A stretch of DNA of 64,000 bases from a virus. Location: IMG/VR virus record IMGVR_UViG_3300029118_000005, one strand, 5' to 3'. The first letter of the stretch is position 1, and each line of letters opens with the position of its first letter. A program made the position numbers and the translations under genes. The notes under the pieces are model-generated. The model searched no databases. It saw only the letters and a program-made list of their open reading frames with translations, and had not been told where the DNA came from. This document shows, piece by piece, positions 7,858-63,081 of the stretch.

Positions 7858-9348
7858 TTATACTTTCCCAGTTATAGGGCTTGTTTCCAACTGATCTATT
7901 TGTCTATCAGTTGGTTCACTGTCTTCCGTTGCTGTGGTTCCGCTTGATGCAGCAGCCCTTTGTACTGCTTCTATCATTTCCTTGCTGTCGTTCCATGTAG
8001 CCTCGGTGTCTTCAAAACCGTCAATAAATTTAAGTGCATGTCTGCCATGTACACCAGTCTTAATAAGGGTTGATAAAGCATTTGCTTTAACAGACATGTC
8101 ATAGTTCTTTCTTCTTGAGAAGTGGAAATTGATATCTCCAACATGTACTCTTTTGATTGGGTCATCGTCTTTAAGCACATTTGATGGAGTTAATTGGAGT
8201 ACTTTTATGATAAGTTTAAGCTCCTCTCTCTGTGCCTTGCTCACAATCTGTTCCTCGCGCACAGCGTCAATCTCAGCTGCACTCCATCCGCTAGACATAT
8301 CCATTGCTGTTCCTGTGGAACCACCGCCTTCTGAATCTTGTTGTGTAGGTACTTTACATTTTTGTAAAATTCTTCGCCAGCGTGTATCTATCGCTGTTAA
8401 TGTTGCGTTTGTATCGAATGCATTAGATAGTGCCTTGATTTGTGGTGTCTTTCCATCTGGTGTTGTGCTAGTAAGCACCCATTGCCCCGACTTCACTTCT
8501 ATAGGTTTTTTAGTTTTGGGGTCAACTGGGAAATCAACATCATTGCCCCACCATATCTCCTGAGTTTGCTGCGCTGTAAGGTTTGCAAAATCAGAGACTA
8601 GCGTGTTAAGTTCGATACAATCTGATATTTGTCTCTCAAAGCAGCCCGTTCTGTCAACGGATCTCTCGTATTCGACTATCGCTATTTTTTTGAGTGGATT
8701 TAATGATTTTTTAACAATTTTGCCTTTTGAGACTTCAAAGCGCATCTTAGGAGTAAAACACGTAAAATATTGTTCACCATTGTCCGTTCTGTATGTTACT
8801 CCCATTAGCTTCTTTTGTTTGGCATCATTGCTATATACACAAAAAGCATATCTTGGGTCTAGCGTATATATATCCACAAGTGCTTCGTCATCTTCTTCAA
8901 AATCGGTTTTAACGTCAACAAGTCGGTATCCTACACCTACTTTTTCAACAAAATTGCCAAGCTCCTGATTCTTGTAACCTATGTCGCAAGCATTTGTAAG
9001 CATTTCGTTAAGTGCAGATATTCCTTCGTCGTCTAAGTCTGCTGATGTTTTGTGAGCGTCTTTGTCAGATCTCTGTATCAGCATTGCTGGCGTTCCCCAA
9101 AAGTACGCCATTTTGAAATCAGTAATGTAGTTTGCGGCATTATCAGTTACTTTAATATTGATCTCAGGGCGAACAATTTTGGGTCTGTCCAGCGGTTGAT
9201 CGCCGGCTTCAAAATCTATAAGATATTGCATCTCTAACCGATTAAATTTATGCTTCTCATATGCTTTTGACAATTCTTTGATTATGTTGTCGGCAGTGAT
9301 TTCTTTTGCGTCCGTATATATCTTTTGACGTCCCTTTAGCATCCACAT
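7858..9348 (-). CDS. Portal protein (SPP1 gp6-like)
   Basis: 496 aa. Position upstream of the Mu-F-like gene and N-terminal similarity to SPP1-type portals. Confidence 0.85.
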   Translation of the reverse strand: MWMLKGRQKIYTDAKEITADNIIKELSKAYEKHKFNRLEMQYLIDFEAGDQPLDRPKIVRPEINIKVTDNAANYITDFKMAYFWGTPAMLIQRSDKDAHKTSADLDDEGISALNEMLTNACDIGYKNQELGNFVEKVGVGYRLVDVKTDFEEDDEALVDIYTLDPRYAFCVYSNDAKQKKLMGVTYRTDNGEQYFTCFTPKMRFEVSKGKIVKKSLNPLKKIAIVEYERSVDRTGCFERQISDCIELNTLVSDFANLTAQQTQEIWWGNDVDFPVDPKTKKPIEVKSGQWVLTSTTPDGKTPQIKALSNAFDTNATLTAIDTRWRRILQKCKVPTQQDSEGGGSTGTAMDMSSGWSAAEIDAVREEQIVSKAQREELKLIIKVLQLTPSNVLKDDDPIKRVHVGDINFHFSRRKNYDMSVKANALSTLIKTGVHGRHALKFIDGFEDTEATWNDSKEMIEAVQRAAASSGTTATEDSEPTDRQIDQLETSPITGKV

Positions 9349-9366: not shown

Positions 9367-9567
9367 TTAATAAAATCGTTTGCCGCTGCTGCTTTTAGCT
9401 TGTATCTTTTTTATAGGCTTAACTGACTGCACAATACCGTCCTGTGTAAGAATGCAAGTCATTTGCTCACATTTCCTACATTGCACTTCAAAAACGTTTG
9501 TCGCTTTCTTGTCATAGTGGAAAATAATTCTTCCACAATTGGGGCATGTAATTATCTGGCTACTCAT
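9367..9567 (-). CDS. Com-like zinc-ribbon protein
   Basis: 66 aa with CPNCGRII...VQCRKCEQ, a layout like the Mu Com zinc finger. Confidence 0.4.
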   Translation of the reverse strand: MSSQIITCPNCGRIIFHYDKKATNVFEVQCRKCEQMTCILTQDGIVQSVKPIKKIQAKSSSGKRFY

Positions 9568-9809
9568 AGCGTTTCAGCCGACAGCAGCATCGAGTCTTGC
9601 AATTTGTATACTTCGTCCTGGAAAGACTCGTAATCGGAATTGCATTCCTTCCGGTTCTGCTTATATAACTCATGGTCGTTTATCCAGTTGCTAAACTGTA
9701 CCTCTTTAGGATTGTTTGAATTGATTGATGCCTGAAACGCAAAAATCACTTGATCATTTACTGTGCTGTCTCCTGACAGTGATATACTCTTGCTTCTAAT
9801 CGTTAACAT
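9564..9809 (-). CDS. Hypothetical protein
   Basis: Likely start is ATG 9809 (MLTIRSKS) with AAGGAG RBS. The longer listed start would run through a terminator hairpin. Confidence 0.4.
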   Translation of the reverse strand: MLTIRSKSISLSGDSTVNDQVIFAFQASINSNNPKEVQFSNWINDHELYKQNRKECNSDYESFQDEVYKLQDSMLLSAETL

Positions 9810-9830
9810 GGCTGTCTCCTTTTTGGGTAA

Positions 9831-9859
9831 TAAAAAAGCGCCATACATATGTAAGGCGC
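9831..9859 (-). terminator. Putative minus-strand terminator between the iteron region and the late genes
   Basis: Reverse strand reads GCGCC-TTACATATGTAT-GGCGC followed by TTTTTTATT. Confidence 0.4.
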
Positions 9860-10046
9860 AATTAACTTTATTTCATACTTTTCTATTATTGAGAGTATCA
9901 TAGTAATAGCATGTATTCAAGATGATATCTTGTGTCATTTAGTGATATTAAATGATAGGTTTTAGTGTTATAGGTAACCATGAAATTCCAATTAAAATGT
10001 CATAGTTAATATTGAATTGTTTTTTTATCTGCCTACCAATGCTTTT

Positions 10047-10106
10047 CTTGATTGATAGCTTGATTACTCTCTTGATTACTCTCTTGATTACTCTCTTGAT
10101 TACGGG
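10047..10106. repeat. Tandem 12-bp repeats (CTTGATTACTCT; 3 perfect plus 2 degenerate flanking copies)
   Basis: Read directly from the sequence. Explains the spurious VIKRVIKRVIK ORF 9948..10223. Confidence 0.9.
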
Positions 10107-10149
10107 AGTTCTGAAGGCCGCATAAATGCTAGCTTTTTGATATGTATAG

Positions 10150-10237
10150 GTAACCAAGAAATTCCACATGAGTAACCAAGAAATTCCACATGAGTAACCA
10201 AGAAATTCCACATGAGTAACCAAGAAATTCCATAAAA
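10150..10237. repeat. Iterons: 22-bp direct repeats GTAACCAAGAAATTCCACATGA (3 perfect plus 1 partial)
   Basis: Read directly from the sequence. A degenerate copy lies at 9974-9995 and GGTAAC half-sites overlap the rep promoter. Located immediately upstream of the Rep gene. Confidence 0.9.
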
Positions 10238-10261
10238 TATAAAAAAGGTAACAATTTTATA

Positions 10262-10290
10262 TTTACAATGGTAACTTATGGTGCTATAAT
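10262..10290 (+). promoter_or_regulatory. Sigma-A-type promoter of the rep gene
   Basis: TTTACA, 17 nt, then TATAAT with an extended TG (TGCTATAAT). GGTAAC iteron half-sites lie inside the spacer. Confidence 0.7.
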
Positions 10291-10323
10291 AAACATAAAA
10301 GTAGAGAAAGAGAGGTTTTACAC

Positions 10324-11499
10324 ATGGCTAGAAAAAAGATTGGGCCAATAACCAGTTTAGGAAATGGAGACAAACTTACTGTTCAAAAAAGTTTACCGCT
10401 GTTTTCCCTGTGGCGTTCTGAGCTATCGCTTGCAGAATTTAAAATACTCGATACATACCTATCGCGCATAGATAGTCACAAGCCAGAGAAACGAGTTGTA
10501 GTATTTGAAAAAGGTGAGCTTGAAAAGATTCTAGGAGTAAAAAAAATCAACAACCAAGACCTCAAGGCAAGATTAAAGCATCTTATGGGAAATGTAATAG
10601 AAGTGCAAGATGATAGTGAAAAACAAGGTTTTAGATTGGTGACGTTATTTGAAGAAGCAACGGCAGAACAAGATGATTACGGTCTGTGGCAAGTAAAGCT
10701 AGAGTGTTCTCAAAAAGCAATGAAGTATTTTTTTAATATTGAAAACCTCGGATATCTTCGGTATAAGCTGCGCTGCATAACATTACTCACAAGCCGTTAC
10801 ACTTATATCATGTTTACGTATCTTGAACAAAACCGTTTTCGAAAAAAATGGGAAGTGCAGCTTGATGAATTAAGGCAAATACTTGATTGTGATAAAGAGG
10901 AACTGTATAAAGAATACAAGTTTTTTAATCAAAAGATATTGAAACGTGTTCAGAAAGAAATGGATGAAAAAACTGAATGTCGGTATACATACGAACCCAT
11001 TAAGAAAGGGCGAACGGTAGTTGGTATAAGATTTGAAGTCGAAACATTGCCTATATTGGAAGTGCAAGTTCCAGAAGCGCCAGTGCCAAAGGAAGATACA
11101 TTAGATCGTCCGCTCTGGGAAAGTGCATTGAATGAATGGGAACTATCACAGGCACAGCTAGAAGAGATACAGACGCTACTCGTAACAGTACCAGTTCATA
11201 AGCTGCCAAGTTGCCAAAAGGAAGATCTGGAAAAGGCTTACTACCAGTATATAGCACAGAAAGCTGCTGAAATTAAGCGAAGAAATGAGCAAAAGCCGAT
11301 TCGTAGTCGATTTTTGTATTTGCGAAAGCTTATACAAGGAGATGTATCATCGAAAGCAAAACAATCATCGCAGGCAGCTGCTAAAGGTACTCAAGTATTC
11401 CAAAATTTCACAGAGCGTCAAGACAACAATTACTCGGAAAAAATCATGAATAAGTTAAAAAGTGATTTAAAGGAATTTCAGGAAAATCAAAGTTGCTGA
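10324..11499 (+). CDS. Plasmid-type replication initiator (Rep_3-like, iteron-binding)
   Basis: 391 aa. Winged-helix-like segments (LSLAEFKILDTYLSRI; TSRYTYIMFTYLEQNR...WEVQLDELRQIL; KKGRTVVGIRFEVE) are typical of Rep_3 initiators. Iterons lie upstream. One of the few plus-strand genes. Confidence 0.7.
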   Translation: MARKKIGPITSLGNGDKLTVQKSLPLFSLWRSELSLAEFKILDTYLSRIDSHKPEKRVVVFEKGELEKILGVKKINNQDLKARLKHLMGNVIEVQDDSEKQGFRLVTLFEEATAEQDDYGLWQVKLECSQKAMKYFFNIENLGYLRYKLRCITLLTSRYTYIMFTYLEQNRFRKKWEVQLDELRQILDCDKEELYKEYKFFNQKILKRVQKEMDEKTECRYTYEPIKKGRTVVGIRFEVETLPILEVQVPEAPVPKEDTLDRPLWESALNEWELSQAQLEEIQTLLVTVPVHKLPSCQKEDLEKAYYQYIAQKAAEIKRRNEQKPIRSRFLYLRKLIQGDVSSKAKQSSQAAAKGTQVFQNFTERQDNNYSEKIMNKLKSDLKEFQENQSC

Positions 11500-11506
11500 A
11501 ACATCA

Positions 11507-11542
11507 ATAGCAGGGGAAATTTGCTTCCCCTGCTATTTTTTA
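11507..11542. terminator. Bidirectional terminator between rep (+) and 11540..11977 (-)
   Basis: ATAGCAGGGGA-AATTTGC-TCCCCTGCTAT followed by TTTTTTATT. Confidence 0.75.
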
Positions 11543-11977
11543 TTGGTTCAGATATTCACTCCCAAACTTTTTCTCAAATTCGTTTAATGCTTCTTTGTGA
11601 AGCTTAAAAACATGTCGTTGTGTAAAATGTAACTCATCTACTATTTCGCACCATTGTTGCTGTGCAACGTAACGCTTGAACAGTATATTATAATACTTAA
11701 ACTCAAGCTGCTCCATTTGAGCAATGATTTTAGTTTTTAGGTTCACAAAAGAATCAATCATTGAATCAATTTCGCGTTCCATATCTACCAACTTACAAAT
11801 CGTAGATGCAGTCTTGTCTGTGGCATGTCCAGTTTGCACATTGACATCTTTTACACAACTCGGAACCGAACAAAGCATATTTTTTAACTGTGTTTTTTCA
11901 TAGATCTTGTTTGATATTTTAAGATCAAGTACGCTAATTTGTGAAAGATAGTGTTTTGTATCCATACATGTCTCCAA
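11540..11977 (-). CDS. Sigma-70 region-4-like late transcription regulator (RinA/ArpU/DUF1492 type)
   Basis: The C-terminus YNILFKRYVAQQQWCEIVDELHFTQRHVFKLHKEALNEFEKK matches the HTH pattern of phage late activators. Confidence 0.45.
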   Translation of the reverse strand: METCMDTKHYLSQISVLDLKISNKIYEKTQLKNMLCSVPSCVKDVNVQTGHATDKTASTICKLVDMEREIDSMIDSFVNLKTKIIAQMEQLEFKYYNILFKRYVAQQQWCEIVDELHFTQRHVFKLHKEALNEFEKKFGSEYLNQ

Positions 11978-11979
11978 TC

Positions 11980-13689
11980 TTAATAGATGCTGTTAATGAT
12001 TCTTGTTGGCCTTGGTTTTCTACGCTGTATGCGTAATGCGAAGTTTGCAAATGTATCTGGTACATCATCAAGCTGCTTTTTTCCGGTTGCCGAGTATTGG
12101 GCCAAAAGTGACATCATAATTCCATATGGTTCACGTGGCTTGTACATTTCCATATCCTTAAAAACGATATTTTGCAGTATCCAATTCGAACATTGAAAAA
12201 TTCGGGCTTCTTTGTTCGATTCAGTCATAGGATGGCTTATATTACAAATCCATCCTTTTTCTAAAACTCTTTTGGCAACTTCGTTGGCAACTCGGTCACC
12301 ACCATTGTTTCCTTCAAATTCACAATCCATAACTTTGTTGTTGACTAAAATGTTAGCAGAATTTTCATACTGTGCCTCATAGTCTGTAGAATTACTGCAT
12401 ATACAATCTATGCAATAATAGAGGTTGCCATATTTTAAAAATACTGGAAGAACAAAAAAATCAGTTCCACTAGACTTTGTATCACATTGCGCAGTAATCA
12501 ATTCTGGAGTTCCCTTAGGAAGTTCTTTATAGCGTTGAATTTTTTCTCCAGGAAATAATAGTCCTTCTCTTTCAATTGGTTCTTGCATAAAAAGACACTT
12601 GTACGAGATTTCGTCCATTGTCAGCTCTTGATCTGCAAAGAACTCTTTCGTGAATCCACCGACTGCATAATTGAAATTGCTCTCACCAGTAATGGGATCA
12701 ACTGCAGGTACAGATATAATTTTTGTGCGAGGGTCATCTTGATAAAGAATTATTACTCGACCAATTACGTCTTGGTTTGACCATCTAGTAGCCTGCATAA
12801 TTTCTTTACATGATTTTCCATCACTATCTACAGTTTTACGCTGCTTTGCATCTACAGAATAAAAACGCCATATTTTATCAAGATAGTTTTTATTTAACGC
12901 CTGTTCGCTGTTACCAATTAAGTCGTCTGATAGCAAGTATTTGTTTGCTCGCACCTTACCTGAACTGTTTGCACCAATTGATGTTGTTTGTAGCGATGGG
13001 AATGGTTTGTAGCTTCCCACGTTAAACTGTTGCATCAATGCATTTGTTGATGTAATTTTTAAACCTGGGAAGATTTCGTTCCACGCATATTCAATAGTAT
13101 CGTCTATCATCTGATAAACACCATCATAATACATTCGTGTAATATCGCCAGAATGAGAGCAAAATAAACTATAATCTTCTGGGAACCACCCTATAATCGC
13201 TGAATGAAAGAATTTTAAAAGGGTGGTTTTTCCAGTACCAGGAGGCAGAGAAATACACAGTCTATCATAACGATCATCCAACATTCCTTGGTAAGCTTCG
13301 ATAAGCTTAAATTTTTCAAACTGTTTAATTTTTGGCTTATAAAACATGTTCCTAGGATCACGTTTACGTTCCAAAAACAGTAAATAGTCATTGAATATTC
13401 TTGCTCTCGCACCATTCAGATAGGTCTGCCAATACAGTTTGTCCCACTCGTCACCCTCTACTTTTCTGTTGCGGTTGCAGTACCATCGGACGTAGCTATT
13501 TACATGGTCGCCATACCCTCTATACGCATCAAGATTCTTAAAATCGCGATTTGGTATAAACTCATTGGCATCAAGCAGAATCAGTCTTGCTCCGCCACAT
13601 AAGGTGTTGAGCTGACTGTATGTAGGCTGCATGATAATCTGGCGCTGTATATTCTCCACACGTTCTTTATGCTGTCTTAGCTCTAACAA
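11980..13689 (-). CDS. terL: Terminase large subunit
   Basis: 569 aa. Walker A LPPGTGKTT and a C-terminal nuclease-like region. TTG start with AGGAGGAG RBS. Confidence 0.85.
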   Translation of the reverse strand: MLELRQHKERVENIQRQIIMQPTYSQLNTLCGGARLILLDANEFIPNRDFKNLDAYRGYGDHVNSYVRWYCNRNRKVEGDEWDKLYWQTYLNGARARIFNDYLLFLERKRDPRNMFYKPKIKQFEKFKLIEAYQGMLDDRYDRLCISLPPGTGKTTLLKFFHSAIIGWFPEDYSLFCSHSGDITRMYYDGVYQMIDDTIEYAWNEIFPGLKITSTNALMQQFNVGSYKPFPSLQTTSIGANSSGKVRANKYLLSDDLIGNSEQALNKNYLDKIWRFYSVDAKQRKTVDSDGKSCKEIMQATRWSNQDVIGRVIILYQDDPRTKIISVPAVDPITGESNFNYAVGGFTKEFFADQELTMDEISYKCLFMQEPIEREGLLFPGEKIQRYKELPKGTPELITAQCDTKSSGTDFFVLPVFLKYGNLYYCIDCICSNSTDYEAQYENSANILVNNKVMDCEFEGNNGGDRVANEVAKRVLEKGWICNISHPMTESNKEARIFQCSNWILQNIVFKDMEMYKPREPYGIMMSLLAQYSATGKKQLDDVPDTFANFALRIQRRKPRPTRIINSIY

Positions 13690-14752: not shown

Positions 14753-15178
14753 TTAATTTCCTCCGTGTTTATTCCATATTCTTTCATATTCATCTACCCA
14801 TTGTTGAGCAGAGTAACAGCGATGTTTCTTTATTTCTTCTCGGACATCGCTCCACATCACAAAATAAGTATTTATTATAGACTTTCGAACATAACAACTG
14901 TATACTTGGCTAAGATGATATATATGTTGGTTACCAACAAATGCCTCAGTATTATCAAAGCGGCTTCTTTCATCAGTCAAGCTTCTGTCGTACATTTCTG
15001 TAAGCCCCATATATAAACAAGCTAGCTTGTAATAGTCCGACTTCTCTGATTCTATTCCTGTTGGAAAATATCGAAATTGAATTTTTTCAGCAGGTAGCTT
15101 TTGTATGCCATCGGCTAAGTTGCTTTGTGGATCACAATATTTTAGATTCTCCATTTTCCTCCCATCATTTTTATTCAA
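14753..15178 (-). CDS. Hypothetical protein
   Basis: 141-aa ORF, tightly packed between its neighbours. Confidence 0.4.
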   Translation of the reverse strand: MNKNDGRKMENLKYCDPQSNLADGIQKLPAEKIQFRYFPTGIESEKSDYYKLACLYMGLTEMYDRSLTDERSRFDNTEAFVGNQHIYHLSQVYSCYVRKSIINTYFVMWSDVREEIKKHRCYSAQQWVDEYERIWNKHGGN

Positions 15179-15698
15179 TATACCAATCTTCCGCTAAAAG
15201 ATCTTCCACGCTTGGGAGATACATTGCAAGTGAACCATCAATATAACGCATCTGAAGATATGGATCGCAGTTAAGAAGCCCTTCTCCGTTATCAACTTCT
15301 AAATAGGCATCCACTGTGCCTATATCACAAGGATGGCCAGCTGGTAAACCTTTGCGATATAAAACAAAACGTCCGCTTCCATACCAACACATTCGGGCGA
15401 CTTTATAACCTTGCTTTAGTAAATCTAGCGCTTTGCTAAATGTGAATAATTGTTTTCCGTTAGCTGTTTGCGATTCACTAGAATTATTTGCAATTTCCCA
15501 GTCTTCCGCAAGCATTCCCATAAAAATATAAGTCATATCAGCAGTGTCAGGAATGTTAAAAAGTTCTTTAAGCTTTCCTGAATCGTGTTTTGCTATTAAG
15601 GTTTTCTTTGATTTGTCATAGTACCAGACTTCATTCCATTTCTTTCTTTTCATTGGAATGCCTTTTTTCATATTGGAAAATGCAGCTCTGAAATCCAT
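15171..15698 (-). CDS. Protein with two DUF2829 (Tad2-like) domains
   Basis: Two repeats follow the DUF2829 pattern. The first is FRAAFSNMKKGIPMKRKKW...MLAEDWEI. The second is FSKALDLLKQGYKVARMCW...EDLLAEDWYIE. Confidence 0.6.
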   Translation of the reverse strand: MDFRAAFSNMKKGIPMKRKKWNEVWYYDKSKKTLIAKHDSGKLKELFNIPDTADMTYIFMGMLAEDWEIANNSSESQTANGKQLFTFSKALDLLKQGYKVARMCWYGSGRFVLYRKGLPAGHPCDIGTVDAYLEVDNGEGLLNCDPYLQMRYIDGSLAMYLPSVEDLLAEDWYIE

Positions 15699-19121: not shown

Positions 19122-20132
19122 TTAGAACAAGTGTTTATAGAACAGTATTTCTCGGATGCTGCCAGACATGTAGTGCGATAAACTTTTTACAATCACTCCA
19201 TGTTTGCTGCCGTAATCAGTTTTTAGATATTCTTCAATCAGAACCTTGTTACTTTCAAGGTCATCATAGTCATCCTTCAAGGATTCTGGAGACTTGATGT
19301 AGCTTCGTGTAACTCGTTTAAGGCTCTCATCTGATAGATTCTTAGCGTCAAAGCCCGTAGATGCTTTGTATTGGTGGTTAAACTCAAAAATAATAGCAGT
19401 CAGGCTGTTATATTCCTTGTCAACCCAGTCATTTTCCTGTTGCTCTGTGGTAAAGATGTTTTTCGGATTGTTTGAATACAGTCTGTGAAGCTCATCTTTA
19501 AGAACTGACTCCTTAGACTTGATAAAATCATCTGGATCAACATCAGATTCTTTCTTTTGGGTCTTGTGCACTGAGTTTTGAGCACTTTTAGTGCGCGAAA
19601 CCATGTATTTATCTCTATTGTCAACTTTAGTTGATAATAGAGCATGTTCTTTATCTGTATCACTTAAACTACTGTTATACTTAATATCTATTGTATTACT
19701 TATCTGTGGACTTTTTTCAACCCCACCCTGTTGATTTTTCTCCATACCCCCACATGGATTTTTTTCCATGTTAGAAGAAATAGATTTTTCATTGACAAAA
19801 GAATCAAAAAATTTCTGAGTGAGGATAATGATTCGCTTGTCGATTTCTTTAGTGTTTTCTTTGTATTCAAAGATTCTTTCAATCAATCCCAGTTGTTCAA
19901 ATTTTAAAAGCATCTTTTGGATACTATTTTCTTTTAAGCCAATGAAGTTGGCAAAATGCTTGTTAGAAGCAAAACAGCCTTTGTCTTTTTGAGTAAGGCT
20001 GTATATCTCAATTAACAAGAATTTCTCTCTAGGACTTAAATCCGGTGATAAATAAAGACGTTCTGGAATCCAGATTCCTTTAAAATCTCTGCCCTCCGAT
20101 ATTACTATTTCTTTTTTTGCCTTCTCTGACAT
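19122..20132 (-). CDS. Winged-helix (HTH_36-like) protein, possible replication organizer or regulator
   Basis: The N-terminus IPERLYLSPDLSPREKFLLIEIYSLTQ...CFASNKHFANFIGLKENSIQKMLLKFEQLGLIER follows a typical phage HTH_36 pattern. Confidence 0.45.
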   Translation of the reverse strand: MSEKAKKEIVISEGRDFKGIWIPERLYLSPDLSPREKFLLIEIYSLTQKDKGCFASNKHFANFIGLKENSIQKMLLKFEQLGLIERIFEYKENTKEIDKRIIILTQKFFDSFVNEKSISSNMEKNPCGGMEKNQQGGVEKSPQISNTIDIKYNSSLSDTDKEHALLSTKVDNRDKYMVSRTKSAQNSVHKTQKKESDVDPDDFIKSKESVLKDELHRLYSNNPKNIFTTEQQENDWVDKEYNSLTAIIFEFNHQYKASTGFDAKNLSDESLKRVTRSYIKSPESLKDDYDDLESNKVLIEEYLKTDYGSKHGVIVKSLSHYMSGSIREILFYKHLF

Positions 20133-20232
20133 CTGTTTTACCTCCTGTGCGATAATGTATTCCTGTGATTACAAATCAGTTGCCAGGCAGTCACAGGTTC
20201 TGCTTTTCGGGAGCTACCCTAGGCAACTGGAG

Positions 20233-20316
20233 CGCCGCGAGAAGGATTCGAACCCTCAGTCCTTTTACAGATCACTAGTTTTCAAAACTAGCCCAGTACC
20301 ATTGTGGCATCGCGGC
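20233..20316 (-). tRNA. tRNA-Ser (anticodon UGA)
   Basis: Reverse-strand cloverleaf. Acceptor is GCCGCGA/TCGCGGC. Anticodon stem CTAGT/ACTAG carries loop TTTGAAA. The variable arm is 17 nt and the T arm is GAGGG-TTCGAAT-CCTTC. No CCA is encoded. Confidence 0.8.
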
Positions 20317-20320
20317 AAGA

Positions 20321-20405
20321 CGCAATCGACAGGGGTTGAACCTGTAAGCCGAAGAAACGACCGACTCCTTAGCGGGGAGTTCCAATACCATTATGGGACG
20401 ATTGC
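20321..20405 (-). tRNA. tRNA-Ser (anticodon GCU), with C at position 33
   Basis: Acceptor is GCAATCG/CGATTGC. Anticodon stem ACTCC/GGAGT carries loop CCGCTAA. The variable arm is 18 nt and the T arm is ACAGG-TTCAACC-CCTGT. Confidence 0.7.
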
Positions 20406-20411
20406 AAAAAG

Positions 20412-21224
20412 TTAAATATTCCTCCATTCATCTTCCGAATATTCTTTTATTTCAGTTGACTTTTTAGGTAAATTGTATTTATCACACCATTTACGTATCG
20501 CATTGTCCGACACACCAAACATAATTCCGATCTGAGTAAATGGAACAGTCCTGATTAGTCTCTTTAACTCCTCACGGGTTATATTTCTTAATGGAGTGAT
20601 CGTTTTCTTTGGAGACTTTTTCTTCTTTTTCTTTTTTCTGTGATATTTTGAATAACAAAGATAGCAAAGATTGCTTTTATTGTTTTTTCTAATCGTTTTA
20701 CCACATTTTTTACATGTGTTTCTAGCTCTCTCTTTTATTCTTTCTTTTACTTTTTCTGAATTATATACTCCGAAGTTGTCTGTTAAACTATGACAATTAG
20801 GACATAGAATTTGCAAGTTTTCCAACGAATTGTTATCATGATTTCCATCAATATGATGTAATTGTAATTTAATCGGTTTTCCCATCCATTCGGAATTTCC
20901 ACACAATTCGCATCTTTTTTCTTTATACCCAAGTTCTATGAGCTTATTTTTAAGTTTGTGACTATTAACTTTTGTATTTGGCATCAACTTTGACTGAATG
21001 TCATAAACTTCCTTTCGATTTTGGTTGCATTTCAGTATATAATTGCGTTTATTTTCTTCAAATTTAGTGGTATCTAAATTGTATTCTTCTATGATTCTTT
21101 TTAGTGTTACAGTACTACTCGCACTTTTTATTCCTGCTAATTCCAATATTGATTTATATGTACTATGCGTGTCAATCAAGGATTGTAATTCTTCAGGAGT
21201 GAAATTATACAGCTTACTACTCAT
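20412..21224 (-). CDS. HNH homing endonuclease with C-terminal HTH
   Basis: CELCG...LHHIDGNHDNNSLENLQILCPNCH is the HNH motif. Inserted between the two tRNA groups. Confidence 0.8.
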   Translation of the reverse strand: MSSKLYNFTPEELQSLIDTHSTYKSILELAGIKSASSTVTLKRIIEEYNLDTTKFEENKRNYILKCNQNRKEVYDIQSKLMPNTKVNSHKLKNKLIELGYKEKRCELCGNSEWMGKPIKLQLHHIDGNHDNNSLENLQILCPNCHSLTDNFGVYNSEKVKERIKERARNTCKKCGKTIRKNNKSNLCYLCYSKYHRKKKKKKKSPKKTITPLRNITREELKRLIRTVPFTQIGIMFGVSDNAIRKWCDKYNLPKKSTEIKEYSEDEWRNI

Positions 21225-21281
21225 TTAGACTCCTTTTTATATCGTAAGAGAATTCTTATAAGAATTATCTGTTGCTAATAT

Positions 21282-21352
21282 TGCGGAGAGATGGACTTGA
21301 ACCATCAACTCTGGCGTATGAAGCCAGCAAGCTCCCTTTGCTCTATCCCGCA
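21282..21352 (-). tRNA. tRNA-Met-like (anticodon CAU), imperfect acceptor stem
   Basis: Anticodon stem CTGGC/GCCAG carries loop TTCATAC. T arm is GATGG-TTCAAGT-CCATC and D arm is GAGC-AAAGGGA-GCTT. The acceptor strands pair only partly in either register. Confidence 0.45.
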
Positions 21353-21353
21353 G

Positions 21354-21425
21354 TGAGTGATAGGAGACTCGAACTCCACAGTCTTAATTAAAGGTTAAGT
21401 GCTCTACCAGCTGAGCTAATGGCAC
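21354..21425 (-). tRNA. tRNA-Lys-like (anticodon UUU), poorly paired acceptor stem (possible pseudo-tRNA)
   Basis: D arm is GCTC-AGCTGGTA-GAGC. Anticodon stem CTTAA/TTAAG carries loop CCTTTAA, and the T loop is TTCGAGT. Acceptor GTGCCAT versus ATCACTC pairs at about 4 of 7 positions. Confidence 0.4.
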
Positions 21426-21427
21426 AA

Positions 21428-21498
21428 CAGGGCTAGTTGGACTCGAACCAACAGTGCAGGAATCAAAATCCTGTGCCTTACCATTTGGCGATAACCCC
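21428..21498 (-). tRNA. tRNA-Gln (anticodon UUG)
   Basis: Acceptor is GGGGTTA/TAGCCCT (two G-U pairs). D arm is GCC-AAATGGTAA-GGC. Anticodon stem CAGGA/TCCTG carries loop TTTTGAT. T arm is GTTGG-TTCGAGT-CCAAC. Confidence 0.8.
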
Positions 21499-21513
21499 AG
21501 CGTGATCTTATCC

Positions 21514-26520: not shown

Positions 26521-26765
26521 TAGATACACTATACACATACCTACTTACTAGATATCTATATACAGTACATACAGATATACTATACATATACCTTGTACAT
26601 ACTGTATCTATACATACTCACCTTATATATACTGTACATATATACCTTATACAGACATACTTAATATATATTATCAGATAATATATTAAATATACCGATA
26701 GTATATTAAATATATATACCATATACATATACAGTAAATATATATACTGTATATATTATATATAA
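26520..26765. repeat. G-poor TATACA/ATACTGTA low-complexity tract
   Basis: Many ATACTGTAT / ATACAGTAT words. Includes a perfect inverted repeat TACAGTA-N8-TACTGTA at 26730-26751. Confidence 0.75.
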
Positions 26766-31316: not shown

Positions 31317-31377
31317 AACACACATATGTACTGTTATTTTGCAATAGTGCATATTGACAAAGAAAGGAAGGGCAAAC

Positions 31378-32283
31378 ATGAATTGGGAAAATTTGCTGAA
31401 AGTGTATGAAAATATGGGTGTTGAGGATATTATCCCAATAGCCCATACAAGAATTTTACCACATATAAAGGTATTGCTCGATGAAAATGGAAATTACATA
31501 GGGGCGATGTTAAACGGTAAAGACCGTTTTACTATTCCGTGCACCATTGAATCTGAATCAAGAACAAGCGGAAACAATCCACATCCGATTCATGACAATA
31601 TGCAATATTTGTCGGCAGACTATAACAAAGAAAAACACGATAAATATATGGAACAATTAGAAGCCTACATTTCTAAAGTAGATGACAAATTGGCAAAATC
31701 AGTATACAGATTTGTTCAAAAAGGATTGATGAGGGATGTTTTACAAGGATTTCTAAAAAAGATTCCTTATCCAGAAGAAAAAACTGTGGTTTGTTTTGTG
31801 ATGGCTCCGCAGGAAGAATTGATAAGAGCAAGTTTTAGTGGGGAATATGAAAAATATTGCCTAAATCTTCTTCGATCAGGAGACGGGCAAAACAAGCAAT
31901 GGAAAGACTATTATCTTAGCAGTTTGGAACCAAATGGAATGTGTAGCATTACAGGAAATAACGATTTTATTCCTGCAACTTATCCGAAGGGTATTAGATT
32001 TGCAGGTGATGGAGCAAAACTTTTTATTGCGTCATCTCGTAATATTATGTTGGAAGGAATGCCGGCCCTTGCACCTGGTTACATAGCGTCGCAAAAAATA
32101 CTGCATACGCTTCAATGCCTATGCTTTGAGGGACCACAATGGGCAAATCAAGTAATGCGTGACAATTTAAAATCTGTTAAAGAAATTGATTTAACAGCAG
32201 ATGAAGAGAAAGTAGTGGAAAGGTATATAAAAAACATACTTAAAGAAAGTAAGACGTGTCAAATAACTCCTGACTGTAAATAA
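31378..32283 (+). CDS. cas8c: Cas8c/Csd1-like protein, N-terminal ~300 aa only (truncated type I-C Cascade large-subunit homolog)
   Basis: Likely start is ATG 31378. Four segments are collinear with Firmicute Csd1 as I recall it: NWENLLKVYEN, IIPIAHT, TIPCTIESESRTSGNNPHPIHDNMQYLSADY, and CSITGN..P..YPKGIRFAGDGAKL...GYIASQKILHTLQCL. The protein ends about 300 aa short of canonical length. Confidence 0.55.
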   Translation: MNWENLLKVYENMGVEDIIPIAHTRILPHIKVLLDENGNYIGAMLNGKDRFTIPCTIESESRTSGNNPHPIHDNMQYLSADYNKEKHDKYMEQLEAYISKVDDKLAKSVYRFVQKGLMRDVLQGFLKKIPYPEEKTVVCFVMAPQEELIRASFSGEYEKYCLNLLRSGDGQNKQWKDYYLSSLEPNGMCSITGNNDFIPATYPKGIRFAGDGAKLFIASSRNIMLEGMPALAPGYIASQKILHTLQCLCFEGPQWANQVMRDNLKSVKEIDLTADEEKVVERYIKNILKESKTCQITPDCK

Positions 32284-33304: not shown

Positions 33305-33337
33305 TAGGGATAGAATCAAATCTATCCCTATTATTTT
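33305..33337 (+). terminator. Rho-independent terminator of the plus-strand island
   Basis: TAGGGATAG-AATCAAAT-CTATCCCTA followed by TTATTTT. Confidence 0.75.
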
Positions 33338-33408
33338 ACAGTTCTTGACAGTATTTTACATTACTTTACATTATTATACATTATTTTACATTAAAATAAT
33401 GTCAAAAT
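33331..33408. repeat. Junction motif copy A: six 10-bp-phased TTTACA-type repeats ending in the palindrome ACATTAAAATAATGT
   Basis: ttattttaca|gttcttgaca|gtattttaca|ttactttaca|ttattataca|ttattttaca|ttaaaataatgtcaaaat. Confidence 0.8.
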
Positions 33409-38113: not shown

Positions 38114-39673
38114 TTACTCACCTTCCTCCTTCGGTTTAAGATCTGCCTTGTAAGAGCTTAAATGTTCTTCTATAGTTTCAAGACTATTGGATTCCTCTGG
38201 AATCAATCGGTTGAGATAATATAAAAAAGAATTATAAGCCTTTGCTGTGCAATAATACTTTTCCTTGCCATTCACCGTAACTATTCGACCTCTAAATGAT
38301 GTCGGGGATGCATTATCAATTAAAGATTTAGAAAAGTCCAGTGCAGACTGCTTGACCATTCTTAGAAAATATTCAAATGCGGTGGCGCTTGATGAAAGAA
38401 ATCTGGACCAAATCAAATCTAGGTTACTAGAAAACTCATATTTTTTAAGTTCAGTCGGATTCTGCTTGCCACTAGCCATCTGAATATTGTAGGATAATAC
38501 ACCAATTTCATTTGTAATATAACGGCATAGTTCAATGGCAACAGATATGTAATCTGCAAAGTTAGGATCGAGATTCGCTGTAAATCTTTTTGAACATTCA
38601 TCGACAAACTTCATTGCCTTAGAGTCATACATCATTCCACAAGTTTGAAAGCCTGCGTTGCTAATTCCGATTAAGCGCAACCATGTAACAGTGTCTTGAT
38701 TGCTGTAAAGTATCTTGTCGAGTAGTTGCCACAATGGAACATCGTTAAATAAGCGAAGTGGTTTAGCACTGTTACTATTTAAAATGTAAAGTGCCATGGT
38801 TTCAGCTACAACACGTTCTTTATCAAAAAACTCCCCACCCAATGCATTAAATCCGGTTATGACCCCATTTTCACGCTTGAGAAATATCCTGCGCGATTGG
38901 TGCGTGAATAATTCCGCTGGGTTAGAAGGTGGATCAATCTTTTTGCGCTCATCGGATCGTGGCGAGCATTCCCATATTGGGCAAGGCTTAGGCCACAATT
39001 CTCCATTACCATTCTGTAAAGGAACTAGGTTCATCATAAGTGTTTCAAAAAGATTTCGCCCGATTGCGTAAACAATAGTATTTTGCCCCAACCATCCAAT
39101 ACTGATTGAAGGCAAGCCTGTCCTACTTGGCTTTACAGAAACATCGTCATACCCGTTGATAAAAAGAAGCCATCTAGCCGCTTCTGCATATGTTAGTTGC
39201 ATTTTTGCTTCTCCACTTCTTGCTGCAAAAATTCGTACCTTGTTGTTGCTTTCAGAAATTTCTCCGTTTAACTTTGCAGCACCAAAAGCAGTTCCTTTTT
39301 TAGCTTCGTTTGCCTGATAGAATGGAGCATCAGGATGAAAAAGCCAGAAACGTTCTCTGTATTCTTCTAAATATTTTAAAAACGTTTCTGGAAAATGACC
39401 GAGACTCCAATAACTTTTCCAACGGCTGATTGCTTCATCCCTGTTTGAAAGTGGAATTTCATCACCGTTTGAGTCGAATCTTGCGAATCCAGAATGAGCA
39501 ATTGCAAGAAGTAGCCGTATCATTGCGACATTTTGAGTATCTGTTTCACCTGCCAAATCCATGTATTCATGACTGCGGGCGAAAACTTCTTTAAGTGAAA
39601 CTTCTTTAATAGTATAATTTGGAAGCAATACACGCACCCAGTTTTCATCAAGCAAATTAAATTCTTTCTTCAT
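38114..39673 (-). CDS. cas8e: Cas8e/Cse1 (CasA)-like protein, full length, orphan
   Basis: Six segments are collinear with E. coli and T. thermophilus CasA as I recall them: FNLLDENWVRV, VAMIRLLLAIAH, GHFPETFLKYLEEYRERFWLFHPDAPFYQ, LTYAEAARWLLF, GRNLFETLMMNLVP and CPIWE. 519 aa. Confidence 0.75.
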   Translation of the reverse strand: MKKEFNLLDENWVRVLLPNYTIKEVSLKEVFARSHEYMDLAGETDTQNVAMIRLLLAIAHSGFARFDSNGDEIPLSNRDEAISRWKSYWSLGHFPETFLKYLEEYRERFWLFHPDAPFYQANEAKKGTAFGAAKLNGEISESNNKVRIFAARSGEAKMQLTYAEAARWLLFINGYDDVSVKPSRTGLPSISIGWLGQNTIVYAIGRNLFETLMMNLVPLQNGNGELWPKPCPIWECSPRSDERKKIDPPSNPAELFTHQSRRIFLKRENGVITGFNALGGEFFDKERVVAETMALYILNSNSAKPLRLFNDVPLWQLLDKILYSNQDTVTWLRLIGISNAGFQTCGMMYDSKAMKFVDECSKRFTANLDPNFADYISVAIELCRYITNEIGVLSYNIQMASGKQNPTELKKYEFSSNLDLIWSRFLSSSATAFEYFLRMVKQSALDFSKSLIDNASPTSFRGRIVTVNGKEKYYCTAKAYNSFLYYLNRLIPEESNSLETIEEHLSSYKADLKPKEEGE

Positions 39674-41757: not shown

Positions 41758-41807
41758 CAGTTCTTTACATTATTAACCCTTTTTTAAATGTCAAATAATG
41801 TAAAGAA
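41758..41807. repeat. Junction motif copy D: perfect 12-bp inverted repeat TTCTTTACATTA - N23 - TAATGTAAAGAA
   Basis: The arms lie at 41761-41772 and 41796-41807. Preceded by ACAG, as in copy C. Confidence 0.8.
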
Positions 41808-42176
41808 TTATAGATCATGTGTCCGCATGTATTCCTCGATGGCAAAGCAAGCAAATCCTGCTAGGGTGCGGCCTGACTTACGAGCGGCTTCTGAAAAGGC
41901 TGCCTTTTGCGATTCAGTACACGATACACTGAACTGAATCTTACGCTCAGCTGCAGGGACTTCTCTGCGCCCTACATACCCACCATTTGGACCAATCTTT
42001 GGAGTTGGGTTATATCCAGGCGTATACACTCTGTTTGGATCAACTGGAGCGGAGACAAATACTGATTTTTTTTCCACCGGCTGGATGCTTGGAATTTCAG
42101 TTTCGCCAGTATCTGCAAAATCAATGCCGGCTGTCACATCAAAAGAAGTGGTGGTGGTGTTATCTTTCTTTCTCAT
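41808..42176 (-). CDS. Ribbon-helix-helix DNA-binding protein (HicB-C-terminal / ParG-like)
   Basis: The C-terminus KIQFSVSCTESQKAAFSEAARKSGRTLAGFACFAIEEYMR is an RHH pattern. Confidence 0.5.
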   Translation of the reverse strand: MRKKDNTTTTSFDVTAGIDFADTGETEIPSIQPVEKKSVFVSAPVDPNRVYTPGYNPTPKIGPNGGYVGRREVPAAERKIQFSVSCTESQKAAFSEAARKSGRTLAGFACFAIEEYMRTHDL

Positions 42177-42393: not shown

Positions 42394-42720
42394 TCACAAC
42401 CAGCAGGCAAAACCCGCCTTCCGAAGGTACTTTTCTCTATCCATTCGGAAATCCCTTCGTGGCAGGTTCTTATTTATGCTTTCTAAGTATGCCTTACGAC
42501 AAGCGTCTGTCGTGAGTTTCTTTGATAGATAGTCGTAGCAAAGACCCCACCCATCAAAAAAAACATTGACACTTTCGAGAGCCGCTATAACCTCGGACTC
42601 TGTTTCTGCACCCTTGCTTGCGGCAATTATCTCGTCGCAAGTTTTGGTGTACTTGTCATGCTCTCGGTACTCCTCAAACACATTTACAGTAAAAGCATCT
42701 TCTCTCATAACAAACCTCAT
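42394..42720 (-). CDS. Hypothetical protein downstream of parA
   Basis: 108-aa ORF. Confidence 0.4.
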   Translation of the reverse strand: MRFVMREDAFTVNVFEEYREHDKYTKTCDEIIAASKGAETESEVIAALESVNVFFDGWGLCYDYLSKKLTTDACRKAYLESINKNLPRRDFRMDREKYLRKAGFACWL

Positions 42721-42818: not shown

Positions 42819-43586
42819 TTATTGGCAGAATCTAAGTAGTTCTTTTGTGAACTGCATATAGTCAATGGCAGCGTTACACTTTGAATCAAATTTCATGAGA
42901 GTTGTTCTGGTTGCCTGTGCCTTTTGTACAGCAATGCTTTCACGAATAGTTGTGCAAAAAACCTTTGTGTTGAGCTGCTTGGCAATTTCTTCTAAAGAAT
43001 TTTTAACTTCCTGAGCGAGGAGTTGACGGCTCTTATATTTTACTAGTAAGAGTCCTGCAACCTCTAGGTTAGGATTATTTCTTTTCTTTACGCCTGTGAT
43101 GGTTCTGTTAAGTTCTGAGAGGCCTTGAATAGCATAACGGTCTGCAGTGACAGGAATGATGACTTTGTTAGAAGCAATTAAACAGTTTTTAAGCAATTTG
43201 TTGTCAGCCGGAGCTGTATCAATAATAACATAGTCATAGCCAGTTAATTCAGCAAGAGCATCTTTTAGTCTAAAATACTCGTTCCCGTCACTTGGGAATC
43301 TTTGATCTGCTGTTTTCAGCTCTGGATCGGATGCGACTATGTCACCGATTTCTGTTTTTTGAATAGCTTCCGCAATTGGAAGTGGATCTTCAATGTCTAA
43401 AATAACATCGTAGAGAGTTGCCGTATCTTTGGATACTGCTCTATAAGTATCAGTGCTGTTACCCTGCGGATCAGCGTCAACCAGTAAGACCTTCTTGCCT
43501 TGCGACATTAAAATTGACGCAAGTGTAGTGGCTGTTGTGGTTTTTGCAATGCCGCCTTTTTGATTTGCAATGCATATTACTTTCAT
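42819..43586 (-). CDS. parA: ParA/Soj-family partition ATPase
   Basis: Deviant Walker A (IANQKGGIAKTTT) and LLVDADPQGN. 255 aa with AAGGAGG RBS. Confidence 0.85.
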   Translation of the reverse strand: MKVICIANQKGGIAKTTTATTLASILMSQGKKVLLVDADPQGNSTDTYRAVSKDTATLYDVILDIEDPLPIAEAIQKTEIGDIVASDPELKTADQRFPSDGNEYFRLKDALAELTGYDYVIIDTAPADNKLLKNCLIASNKVIIPVTADRYAIQGLSELNRTITGVKKRNNPNLEVAGLLLVKYKSRQLLAQEVKNSLEEIAKQLNTKVFCTTIRESIAVQKAQATRTTLMKFDSKCNAAIDYMQFTKELLRFCQ

Positions 43587-43600
43587 TGTGAAACCTCCTT

Positions 43601-43672
43601 TGTGATTACATTATTCTACATTATTTTACAATTCTTAACCCAATTTGACATTTCTTTACAGTAAAATAATGT
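43601..43672. repeat. Junction motif copy E: 10-bp-phased TTTACA-type array upstream of parA
   Basis: tgtgattaca|ttattctaca|ttattttaca|attcttaacc|caatttgaca|tttctttaca|gtaaaataatg. Collinear with copy A. Confidence 0.8.
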
Positions 43673-43701
43673 TTTTTCCTTTCTCAGTTATAGCATACAT
43701 T

Positions 43702-43738
43702 GTTAGAACTAAAAAGTCAATAGTTAGAACTAAAAAGT
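43702..43738. repeat. Two 16-bp direct repeats GTTAGAACTAAAAAGT (21-bp period)
   Basis: Read directly from the sequence, between motif copies E and F. Confidence 0.85.
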
Positions 43739-43766
43739 TATAAAAAATATCTTTAAGGTTATACGT

Positions 43767-43795
43767 GTGACATTTCTTTACAGTAAAATAATGTT
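43767..43795. repeat. Junction motif copy F (GTGACATTTCTTTACAGTAAAATAATGTT)
   Basis: 28 of 29 nt identical to 43648-43676 in copy E. Confidence 0.8.
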
Positions 43796-43805
43796 AAAAA
43801 ATGTT

Positions 43806-46540: not shown

Positions 46541-47068
46541 CTATATACTTATTTCAAACTCTGGCAAGCAAGGTTGCTTGCCAGTTGAGCTGATTCCTTG
46601 AATCTTTTGAATTTCTTTTTGCTTCGTCAAAACTGTTGCATACGTTCTTAAAAAGTTACTCTGGACCACCGTTTCGAGATCTGTTTGTTCTGTTTTGGCC
46701 CATTTTTCTAAGTTGCCAGGGCTTCCAACGGCTCTTTGAACGCATGATGGCAGTTTTTCAAATTCCTCTTCTGCATGATATGTACTATTGGAAGCAGCAG
46801 CGCGAACCATAGCCCATGCTTCCAAACCTGTTGGAATTTCTGGTTGGTTTAATAATGCTATTTTTTCAACAATTTGTCCTATTGTCGGGGCGAATCCTTT
46901 ACTCTCTGTGAGAATATAGGCTCTCAGTGCTGCATCAACCTGTGAATATGTGTAGTCTGATAGCAGCCTAGCCCAGATTTGAGCAGTAGCATCAATATCT
47001 GCGACTTTATAATTTGGATATGCTACAGTCATCACTAGCATTATTTTTTTTGCGTCATTCTCAGTCAT
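46541..47068 (-). CDS. Replicative helicase loader/inhibitor (SPP1 G39P-like)
   Basis: The N-terminus KKIMLVMTVAYPNYKV....TAQIWARLLSDYTYSQVDAALRAY fits the G39P family pattern. Confidence 0.5.
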   Translation of the reverse strand: MTENDAKKIMLVMTVAYPNYKVADIDATAQIWARLLSDYTYSQVDAALRAYILTESKGFAPTIGQIVEKIALLNQPEIPTGLEAWAMVRAAASNSTYHAEEEFEKLPSCVQRAVGSPGNLEKWAKTEQTDLETVVQSNFLRTYATVLTKQKEIQKIQGISSTGKQPCLPEFEISI

Positions 47069-47525
47069 TGTATATGCTGCCTAAAATGGCATCGAACTGT
47101 GAGCGCTGTGGATTTTGCAGCTTTCTTTCAAATGCTTTTTCTGCTCTTAATGGAAAAATGCCTATCCAACAGTTATCGGTGGACTGATTAAGCAACTGAA
47201 TCTTTAAATTCTTGTCTCCGTGAGATAGGGATTCAAGCTTAATCATTGCTCTTTCAAGAGCTTTTGAAGTCAGTGGTTTCTTTATCTTTGTTCTCATCGA
47301 AGCATAGTCACTTAATGCCTCGTCAAGTTCTGGATCATCTGAGTACTTTCCAGATGCTTTTGCAGTAACAGTCAGTGCCTTTGCATCAGTGTATAATTCC
47401 TGCATGGTTCTTGCCGCTTCTTCATAGCCTAGTCCGTGCAATGCTTTAATCGTATTTATTACGTTTTCTTCATACGGCTTGCTTTTGACTTTTGCTATCA
47501 ATTCTTTCTTTGTCATTTTCTCCAT
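47061..47525 (-). CDS. Possible replisome organizer (DnaD-like C-terminal motif)
   Basis: The segment KKPLTSKALERAMIKLESL...LLNQSTDNCWIGIFPL, plus position upstream of the loader gene. Confidence 0.35.
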   Translation of the reverse strand: MEKMTKKELIAKVKSKPYEENVINTIKALHGLGYEEAARTMQELYTDAKALTVTAKASGKYSDDPELDEALSDYASMRTKIKKPLTSKALERAMIKLESLSHGDKNLKIQLLNQSTDNCWIGIFPLRAEKAFERKLQNPQRSQFDAILGSIYND

Positions 47526-61330: not shown

Positions 61331-61651
61331 TTAACAATCCTCCCAATCAATCTTCTGTCCACATTTTGAACAATAGGAAGCAAGGCAATCATTTATGATG
61401 TTTCCACATACAGAGCAGCTACATGCGTTCTTGTCTGCTAGAATAACCAGTTTTTGTGGAACCTGCTTTTTAAGAGCGCTATGTGCCTTCATGAATACAA
61501 ACGCGGTTCTCATTGATTTTTCAACTGCCTTGTAGTCCTTTTTCTTCAAGGCTTGCTCAGTTGCTCTGGTGCAAGTATCAAGTTTCTTCTTTAATATCTT
61601 CAAGGCTTCTTTATTGCTCATTTGCTTTTCCTTTCTTACAGGAACGGACAT
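61331..61651 (-). CDS. Zinc-ribbon protein ending in CxxCGQKIDW motif (paralog family)
   Basis: CSVCGNIINDCLASYCSKCGQKIDWEDC. Confidence 0.45.
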   Translation of the reverse strand: MSVPVRKEKQMSNKEALKILKKKLDTCTRATEQALKKKDYKAVEKSMRTAFVFMKAHSALKKQVPQKLVILADKNACSCSVCGNIINDCLASYCSKCGQKIDWEDC

Positions 61652-63024: not shown

Positions 63025-63081
63025 AATTTGTTTTCTCCTTTTTTGTTTTGGTCTAAGCTTCCGCTCAAGATGCGACACAAG

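Follow-up and report, generated by a model that had tools for sequence, protein, structure and literature searches.

A Rep_3 iteron replicon related to those of small gut plasmids lies between the terL and portal genes of an uncultured gut phage, a probable phage-plasmid

Background

IMG/VR virus record IMGVR_UViG_3300029118_000005 derives from an uncultured phage that is common in the human gut and has a genome of ~88 kb, part of which is covered by the 64,000-nucleotide (nt) stretch analysed here (the window). At 9.95-11.54 kb of the window, a plasmid-type replication unit, made up of direct repeats, a promoter and a gene (rep) for a Rep_3 initiator, lies on the + strand, antiparallel to the flanking − strand late genes (terL and portal). 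The element is probably a phage-plasmid, with a Rep_3 iteron unit from small gut plasmids as its lysogenic replicon. An earlier reading of the DNA letters (the sequence-only reading) had suggested an extrachromosomal prophage, and this interpretation is supported by the Rep_3 assignment, a ParA gene at the locus where related phages have an integrase, the lack of an integrase, circular contigs and the lack of contigs above 200 kb.

Results

The initiator and its origin

The replication unit and the hairpins at its edges comprise the following features.

9834-9866, − strand: hairpin with T-run that bounds the module on the left and lies just ahead of the start of p94 (−12.8 kcal/mol, z = −3.4)
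9974-9995, + strand: outlying degenerate iteron, 16 of 17 core bases matching (9974-9990), oriented like the main array, at a distance of 155 bp upstream
9996-10046, no strand: AT-rich spacer, 74.5% A+T versus 60.5% in the whole window
10047-10106, + strand: five 12-mers with the core CTTGATTAC (one degenerate, four perfect), a conserved origin element
10150-10237, + strand: four direct 22-bp iterons (3.8 perfect copies), presumed Rep binding sites
10248-10253 and 10270-10275, + strand: two GGTAAC iteron half-sites, 22 bp apart and bracketing the −35, read from the sequence
10262-10290, + strand: rep promoter TTTACA-17-TGcTATAAT with extended −10 (upstream TG), 11 of 12 positions matching the consensus
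10324-11499, + strand: rep, encoding a 391-amino-acid (aa) Rep_3 initiator with winged-helix domains WH1 (residues 30-167) and WH2 (180-238) and a C-terminal extension
11506-11537, no strand: hairpin terminator with a 13-bp stem between the convergent rep and reg145/terL transcripts (−21.4 and −21.9 kcal/mol, z −5.2 and −5.9)

The 391-aa protein that the sequence-only reading had called Rep_3-like is recognised by Pfam (PF01051/PF21205) in both of its domains, with 62.3 bits for Rep3_N (cut-off 22.4) and 59.1 bits for Rep3_C (cut-off 21.1), i.e., ~3 times the curated cut-offs. Rep also matches PHROG replication initiation protein families, and a phmmer search of the single Rep sequence against PDB sequences gave no match. 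Phage-type initiator or loader candidates are encoded elsewhere in the window, at 19122-20132 (HTH_36, phrog_270), 47061-47525 (O-like) and 46541-47068 (loader-like). Since these are also present, the Rep_3 unit appears to be an addition to the phage replication genes and not the sole one.

All three repeat sets described in the sequence-only reading were recovered. Tandem Repeats Finder reported the 22-bp iterons as a perfect array of 3.8 copies (10150-10232; unit GTAACCAAGAAATTCCACATGA) and the 12-mers as a second perfect array of 3.8 copies (10059-10103; CTTGATTACTCT), with a degenerate fifth 12-mer at 10047-10058; a 43-bp spacer separates the 12-mer array from the 22-bp iterons. The 17-nt iteron core occurs five times in 64 kb versus 0.27 expected (0 of 100 shuffles), and all five occurrences are at the origin, where the outlying copy has a single core mismatch. 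The AT-rich spacer is a candidate DNA-unwinding region. No DnaA box (allowing at most one mismatch) was found in 9850-10330, and the window contains no second iteron cluster like incA. The 91-aa open reading frame (ORF) at 9948-10223 (− strand) is a repeat translation artefact of the iterons and 12-mers (e.g. VIKRVIKRVIK), although it is annotated as a gene in some public assemblies (L085).

The near-consensus promoter of the sequence-only reading stands, and a ribosome-binding site (GAGAGG) was located at 10310-10315. The GGTAAC half-sites had both been placed in the promoter spacer; this holds for the one at 10270-10275, while the other lies upstream of the −35, exactly 22 bp away. Together they form a presumed operator for Rep autorepression. 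The terminator downstream of rep had been described as bidirectional, and its hairpin indeed folds at about −21 kcal/mol on either strand, but the T-run is good on the + strand only. Terminators on both sides are predicted to insulate the replicon transcriptionally. Rfam gave no family match, the sole hit (E = 0.4) lying over the terminator.

Relationship to plasmid replicons

In tblastn searches, the nearest annotated relatives of Rep were encoded on circular plasmids of uncultured bacteria, pRGI00363 (HG796312; 4,546 bp; 70%) and pRGI00460 (HG796324; 4,021 bp; 62%). A Rep that is 76% identical was found on an uncultured plasmid of ~8.5 kb, which carries P0021 and whose contig wraps around, and another related Rep on a MobA-carrying contig; replicons closely related to this one abound on small gut plasmids. 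The DNA is ~73% identical to the 8.5-kb plasmid over 1,468 bp, and the similarity begins exactly at the first 12-mer (10047) and stops at the end of rep (11490). Because homology is limited to this interval, a minimal replicon of ~1.45 kb appears to have been acquired, with no other plasmid genes (mob etc.) alongside. A megablast search with 7-14 kb returned two unannotated faecal phage fragments only, and no plasmid.

Origins of the small plasmids consist of 4-5 CTTGATTAC 12-mers, a spacer of ~45 bp, 4.5-5 iterons of 22 bp, half-sites flanking the −35 and rep. This order of 12-mers, spacer, 22-bp iterons, operator and rep is shared with the phage, as is a Rep of 62-76% identity. Unlike the phage, the plasmids each have an iteron sequence of their own, are 4-8.5 kb in size and lack phage genes; some have 44-bp compound iteron units, and most of their Rep C-termini are shorter (~350 aa). 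In alignment A1, the phage, pRGI00460 and pRGI00363 have an identical CCTTGATTGATAGCTTGATTA block but different iterons.

Lactococcal theta replicons of the pCI305 type encode a RepB of 383-441 aa and have an AT-rich region, 3.5 copies of 22-bp iterons, an extended −10 and repeats that overlap the promoter; their replicon specificity resides in the iterons and part of Rep (PMC3138775). The pCI305/pWV02-type replicons of lactococci and other Firmicutes thus share with the phage an upstream AT-rich region, ~3.5 direct 22-bp iterons, iteron-related repeats overlapping the rep promoter, an extended −10 (TGnTATAAT) and an initiator of ~380-440 aa. The counterparts in the window are the AT-rich spacer, the 3.8 copies of the 22-bp unit, the half-sites at 10248 and 10270, and TGcTATAAT. 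Lactococcus plasmids were among the commonest tblastn matches of Rep, and identity to the plasmids of cultured Firmicutes is ~25-33%, with all matches below ~34%, which argues against close kinship to lactococcal repB/ori. The phage replicon further differs from the pCI305 type in having the conserved CTTGATTAC 12-mer array in place of the described AT-rich repeats, half-sites near the promoter that are direct or quasi-palindromic (GGTNACC) and not a clear inverted repeat, no downstream orfX, and a location in a phage. By these features, the element appears to work like the pCI305-type family but to belong to a separate gut-plasmid lineage.

Conservation of the replicon and its exchange in one relative

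Relatives in IMG/VR comprised 38 loci with TerL 71-100% identical to that of the window, on contigs clustering at 85-91 kb, and rep was at the same position in all 38. The iteron core GTAACCAAGAAATTCC(A/G)CAT(G/T)A is shared by each of the 49 related phage loci that were scored, and the distance from the end of the array to the rep ATG is 90-93 bp in every case in which the array was scored. Iteron copy number varies from 1.7 to 5.7 in assemblies that span the array, and many contigs are broken or scaffold-gapped inside it. The ratio of nonsynonymous to synonymous substitution rates (dN/dS) of rep is 0.05-0.11, with dS up to 0.67; rep is under strong purifying selection. The non-coding iterons, 12-mers and promoter are nearly invariant in alignment A1, the rep promoter being unchanged across the relatives aligned.

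One relative (L006) has a divergent replicon within flanks that are 95-99% identical. Its Rep is 51% identical across the winged-helix domains with an unchanged C-terminal tail, and also scores above the Rep_3 Pfam cut-offs. The L006 iterons, in four and a half copies, read ATAGGTGACCGAGAAATCCAGT, and both the outlying iteron and the operator half-sites (AGGTGA..TCACCT) are altered in step. These half-sites flank the −35, as do the equivalent ones of pRGI00460 (GGTGGTAAT..ATTACCACC) and pRGI00363, and among the window, L006 and the two plasmids the iterons differ in step with the divergence of Rep. Such co-variation of Rep and iterons is a prediction of a working iteron replicon.

A partition gene in place of the integrase

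Comparison with relatives that lack the insert, which the sequence-only reading had recommended, proved possible. Such relatives form a sister clade, whose TerL is 62-65% identical to that of the window. It includes the circular Dulem virus 39 (59.7 kb) as well as human contigs of ~55-60 kb, and has TerL, a homologue of the regulator described below, small ORFs and portal, but no rep.

A second locus was compared between the clades by protein-level synteny, from a small LuxR-type helix-turn-helix (HTH) gene (44035-43856 in the window) to a gene for a 173-aa protein (37556-37035 in the window). In the sister clade, this interval holds a single integrase: a large serine recombinase in the Dulem virus and 27 human loci, and, among loci lacking the serine recombinase, a tyrosine integrase of one or other of two types, with one locus of each type examined individually and confirmed (L198 and L235). 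In the window clade, the same interval is occupied by ParA, a 122-aa ORF, further ORFs (p484) and a Cas8e homologue, a block conserved in 66 of 66 loci. The partition-related features are listed below.

42819-43586, − strand: ParA-type partition ATPase (AAA_31 1e-46, phrog_164 5e-57), sitting in the sister clade's integrase locus
41808-42176, − strand: 122-aa ORF (p122), adjoining parA in 53 of 66 loci, no family match
43608-43804, no strand: repeat cluster upstream of parA, with 28-bp direct repeats (43646-43673 and 43768-43795) and a 21-bp tandem repeat (43699-43740)

The ParA that the sequence-only reading had noted at 42.8 kb is genuine by family membership, and it is present on 21 of the 21 rep-carrying contigs of at least 80 kb. 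The 122-aa ORF may encode a centromere-binding partner of ParA, and the repeat cluster is a candidate centromere or operator. The 108-aa ORF that follows parA (42394-42720) was rejected as a ParB because only 13 of 66 relatives have it. Copies of ACATTATTTTAC and of its complement are found in several intergenic regions (43608-43804, which is upstream of parA, 41761-41807 and 33330-33389) and represent a candidate phage promoter or operator motif.

The integrase-replacing block also contains a full-length Cas8e/Cse1 at 38114-39673 on the − strand (Pfam 7.7e-70, PADLOC 5e-68), which is present in 63 of 66 relatives. A 309-aa protein at 31354-32283 (+ strand) matches only the N-terminal ~220 residues of Cas8c/Csd1 (PADLOC 8e-29). 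No other cas genes and no CRISPR array were found in the window, and the solitary Cas8e and Cas8c homologues may be decoy or anti-CRISPR proteins.

Integrase searches, temperance and circular contigs

The absence of any integrase from the window, as claimed in the sequence-only reading, was confirmed with integrase families and extends to the remaining ~24 kb of the genome as seen in relatives. The latter region encodes a cI-like repressor divergent from an AntA/ANT antirepressor, as well as RecT and SSB; the repressor and antirepressor indicate that the phage is temperate.

A check for circularity showed that four near-complete contigs of the clade close on themselves. Three of these (87.7-89.9 kb) have both of their ends in the iteron array, the exact end overlaps being 55-99 nt, and the fourth closes within rep; no host junctions were seen. 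Exact-sequence look-ups of four clade proteins returned 141, 954, 270 and 339 index blocks (1,704 in total), and 0 of the 1,704 were in contigs above 200 kb. A homologue search with the window TerL returned members of the window clade only, and a second search, with the TerL of a Dulem virus, supplied a sister-clade control. For the sister-clade TerL P0352, 5 of 27 blocks fell in the 0.2-1 Mb class, and other sister variants reach 625 kb. An exact look-up of the protein at 62386-63078 gave no record, probably owing to a different start call. For 120 TerL variants of the window clade, contigs were mostly 85-92 kb and at most 130.5 kb long. The 120-kb contig L022 (IMGVR_UViG_3300045988_078977) was considered as an integrated copy and rejected: it is a chimera joined at a shared endolysin gene, and its extra DNA (L022:1-8937) is not host but the tail module of another phage. 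Contig L036 (IMGVR_UViG_3300045988_095051) ends in an Illumina adapter, AGATCGGAAGAGCGTCGTGTAGGG. A TerL scan of genome contigs gave only a 1.1-kb fragment of a Lachnoclostridium metagenome-assembled genome, belonging to the sister clade, and an unrelated hit, so that no host was identified.

Gene setting and other features

On the − strand, the order of genes around the insert is TerL, the 145-aa regulator, the insert, p94, the 66-aa zinc-ribbon protein, portal and MuF.

11980-13689, − strand: TerL, backbone to the right of the insert, also in the rep-less sister clade
11540-11977, − strand: 145-aa regulator (reg145), phrog_36, sigma-like, with a homologue in the rep-less sister clade
9564-9848, − strand: p94, phrog_2566, confined to the window clade, backbone to the left of the insert
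9367-9567, − strand: 66-aa zinc-ribbon protein, backbone to the left of the insert
7858-9348, − strand: portal, backbone to the left of the insert

TerL and portal had been taken as normally adjacent. The insert does lie between them, but in the relatives the two are already separated by the 145-aa regulator and small ORFs. Genes for phage morphogenesis, packaging and lysis were all found (TerL, portal, MuF, major capsid protein, holin, endolysin and tail genes). Many relatives (L012, L014-L026, L028-L038) have an insertion of ~440 bp (~146 aa) within terL, such that the TerL match spans 2151 nt versus 1707 nt and the proteins (P0186, P0231, P0236-P0239) are 715-724 aa long; the insertion is probably an intein or homing element. 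In three relatives (L009:13979-15157, L011 and L019), an IS605-type TnpB gene (OrfB_IS605 plus a Cas12f-like TNB domain) lies between the origin and p94.

Farther away, an intergenic stretch of ~200 bp (26555-26761) is full of TATACATAC-type repeats with a period of ~15 nt and could be a second origin or a regulatory region. Five tRNA genes (two Ser, Met, Lys and Gln) at 20232-21499 are interrupted by an HNH endonuclease gene (20412-21224). Two counter-defence proteins are encoded, one Tad2-like (15171-15698) and the other an Apyc1-like metallo-hydrolase (61636-62364; faint Pfam hit, phrog_392). Some relatives have parts of a diversity-generating retroelement, namely a reverse transcriptase and an Avd-like 23S_rRNA_IVP protein (L098:5064-6662, L096:20381-20414), and in one relative the C5 cytosine methylase contains a Hint-domain intein (L100:19897-20729; window homologue at 51279-52799).

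Discussion

Phage-plasmids and their interconversion with integrative prophages have been documented (PMC7969092, PMC10879196), and the principle, including iteron control of Rep_3 replicons, is already well known. The genome described here combines plasmid replication (Rep_3) and partition (ParA) with the lack of an integrase and of chromosomal junctions. With a plasmid replicon present and a partition ATPase in the integrase's place, the prophage most likely persists as a free plasmid and not in the chromosome. We envisage that an ancestor of the ~88-kb clade captured a complete, iteron-controlled Rep_3 theta replicon from small cryptic gut plasmids, which would have come to rest with the regulator downstream of terL on one side and the portal operon on the other. 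Rep monomers would bind the iterons and melt the adjoining AT-rich and 12-mer region, whereupon the host replisome would load. At the GGTAAC half-sites around the −35, Rep would repress its own promoter, and handcuffing by iteron-bound Rep would limit copy number, while ParA and a partner protein would segregate the copies. The repressed prophage would in this way persist as a low-copy circular plasmid, in place of the chromosomal integration of the sister clade. Binding by Rep, autorepression, control of copy number and a role of the replicon in lysogeny instead of lytic growth are all steps that we infer from the sequence.

P1-type phage-plasmids are among the closest known systems; P1 itself has RepA with oriR iterons, ParAB-parS and a separate lytic replicon (surveyed in PMC7969092 and PMC10879196). 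Both are temperate tailed phages without an integrase that combine an iteron-type plasmid replicon with a ParA-type partition gene and further phage-type replication genes, and both are linked to integrative prophages by evolutionary interconversion. Unlike P1, the phage studied here is known from sequence alone, and its backbone is unrelated, being that of a siphovirus-like gut phage, probably of Firmicutes. Its replicon is 32 kb away from parA, with terL and portal on either side, the window has no incA-like cluster, and no ParB was recognised.

Several points weigh against a phage-plasmid. Small or unrecognised recombinases are possible among the many ORFs without a family, and virion DNA that is circularly permuted and packaged by the headful mechanism would be just as likely to assemble into circles. 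Contigs above 200 kb are rare in metagenomes and the four look-ups are not independent, which makes the absence of such contigs suggestive and not proof. No isolate genome carrying the phage was found in the TerL scan of genome contigs, and no ParB or centromere was recognised, leaving candidates only. The phage-type initiator candidates come from PHROG matches only, and the corresponding genes of the sister clade are not their orthologues. The episomal state of the prophage is itself something we infer.

Iteron-binding initiators serve as lytic origins in some phages. The Rep_3-iteron unit could accordingly be a vegetative origin like lambda O/ori-lambda, with no part in lysogenic maintenance, in a phage that is virulent or pseudolysogenic; the circular assemblies, which fit permuted virion DNA, and the lack of a recognised ParB would agree with this. 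We regard it as improbable, since the sister clade completes its cycle without rep, other phage-type initiator or loader candidates are present, and the repressor-antirepressor switch indicates temperance. The arrival of rep moreover goes together with the exchange of the integrase for ParA at the integrase locus, and the small plasmids from which the replicon comes need only stable maintenance. It is more doubtful still that the prophage integrates by means of an unrecognised recombinase, a transposase or host Xer, with the replicon as an accessory, e.g. for amplification after induction. Many ORFs have no family match and TnpB elements occur in some relatives, but parA occupies the integrase locus, the four circular contigs have no host flank and the sole oversized contig is a chimera with another phage. 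The contrast between 0 of 1,704 blocks above 200 kb and 5 of 27 for the integrative sister clade points the same way.

That the replicon has no maintenance role, and is a selfish passenger (a co-integrated plasmid) or an interference device (an iteron-Rep decoy causing incompatibility with resident small plasmids), seems the least credible of these possibilities. The insert is self-contained and predicted to be transcriptionally insulated, and its close relatives are abundant on small gut plasmids, as a passenger or decoy would have it. A passenger would, however, hardly occupy a single fixed site in all relatives and be under strong purifying selection (dS up to 0.67), having arrived with no other plasmid genes, nor would it explain why the integrase is absent and ParA present.

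A broader and rather speculative extension, which we consider unlikely though worth stating, is that the replicon serves as an exchangeable specificity cassette that determines which of the related phage-plasmids and small plasmids are able to coexist in one cell. The L006 swap would then be an escape from incompatibility. The invariant CTTGATTAC array would be a docking site, not described previously, for a helicase-loading or other host factor; it would be independent of the replicon and common to a whole lineage of gut plasmids and the phage. The location of the replicon between terL and portal might, in addition, tie plasmid replication or its shut-off to packaging and late transcription.

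Conclusions

Many gut phages lack recognisable lysogeny genes, yet most gut phage genomes appear host-associated (PMC11463441). The lineage described here is uncultured and very prevalent, and hundreds of index blocks from public assemblies of the human gut contain it. Genome comparison points to a clean switch from integration to plasmid maintenance, in which a replicon of ~1.45 kb was gained and ParA replaced the integrase at the same locus. The 1.6-kb fragment is a testable replicon, and possibly a vector, for gut Firmicutes that are hard to transform, and the two replicon variants provide a natural pair for studies of incompatibility between phage-plasmids and plasmids.

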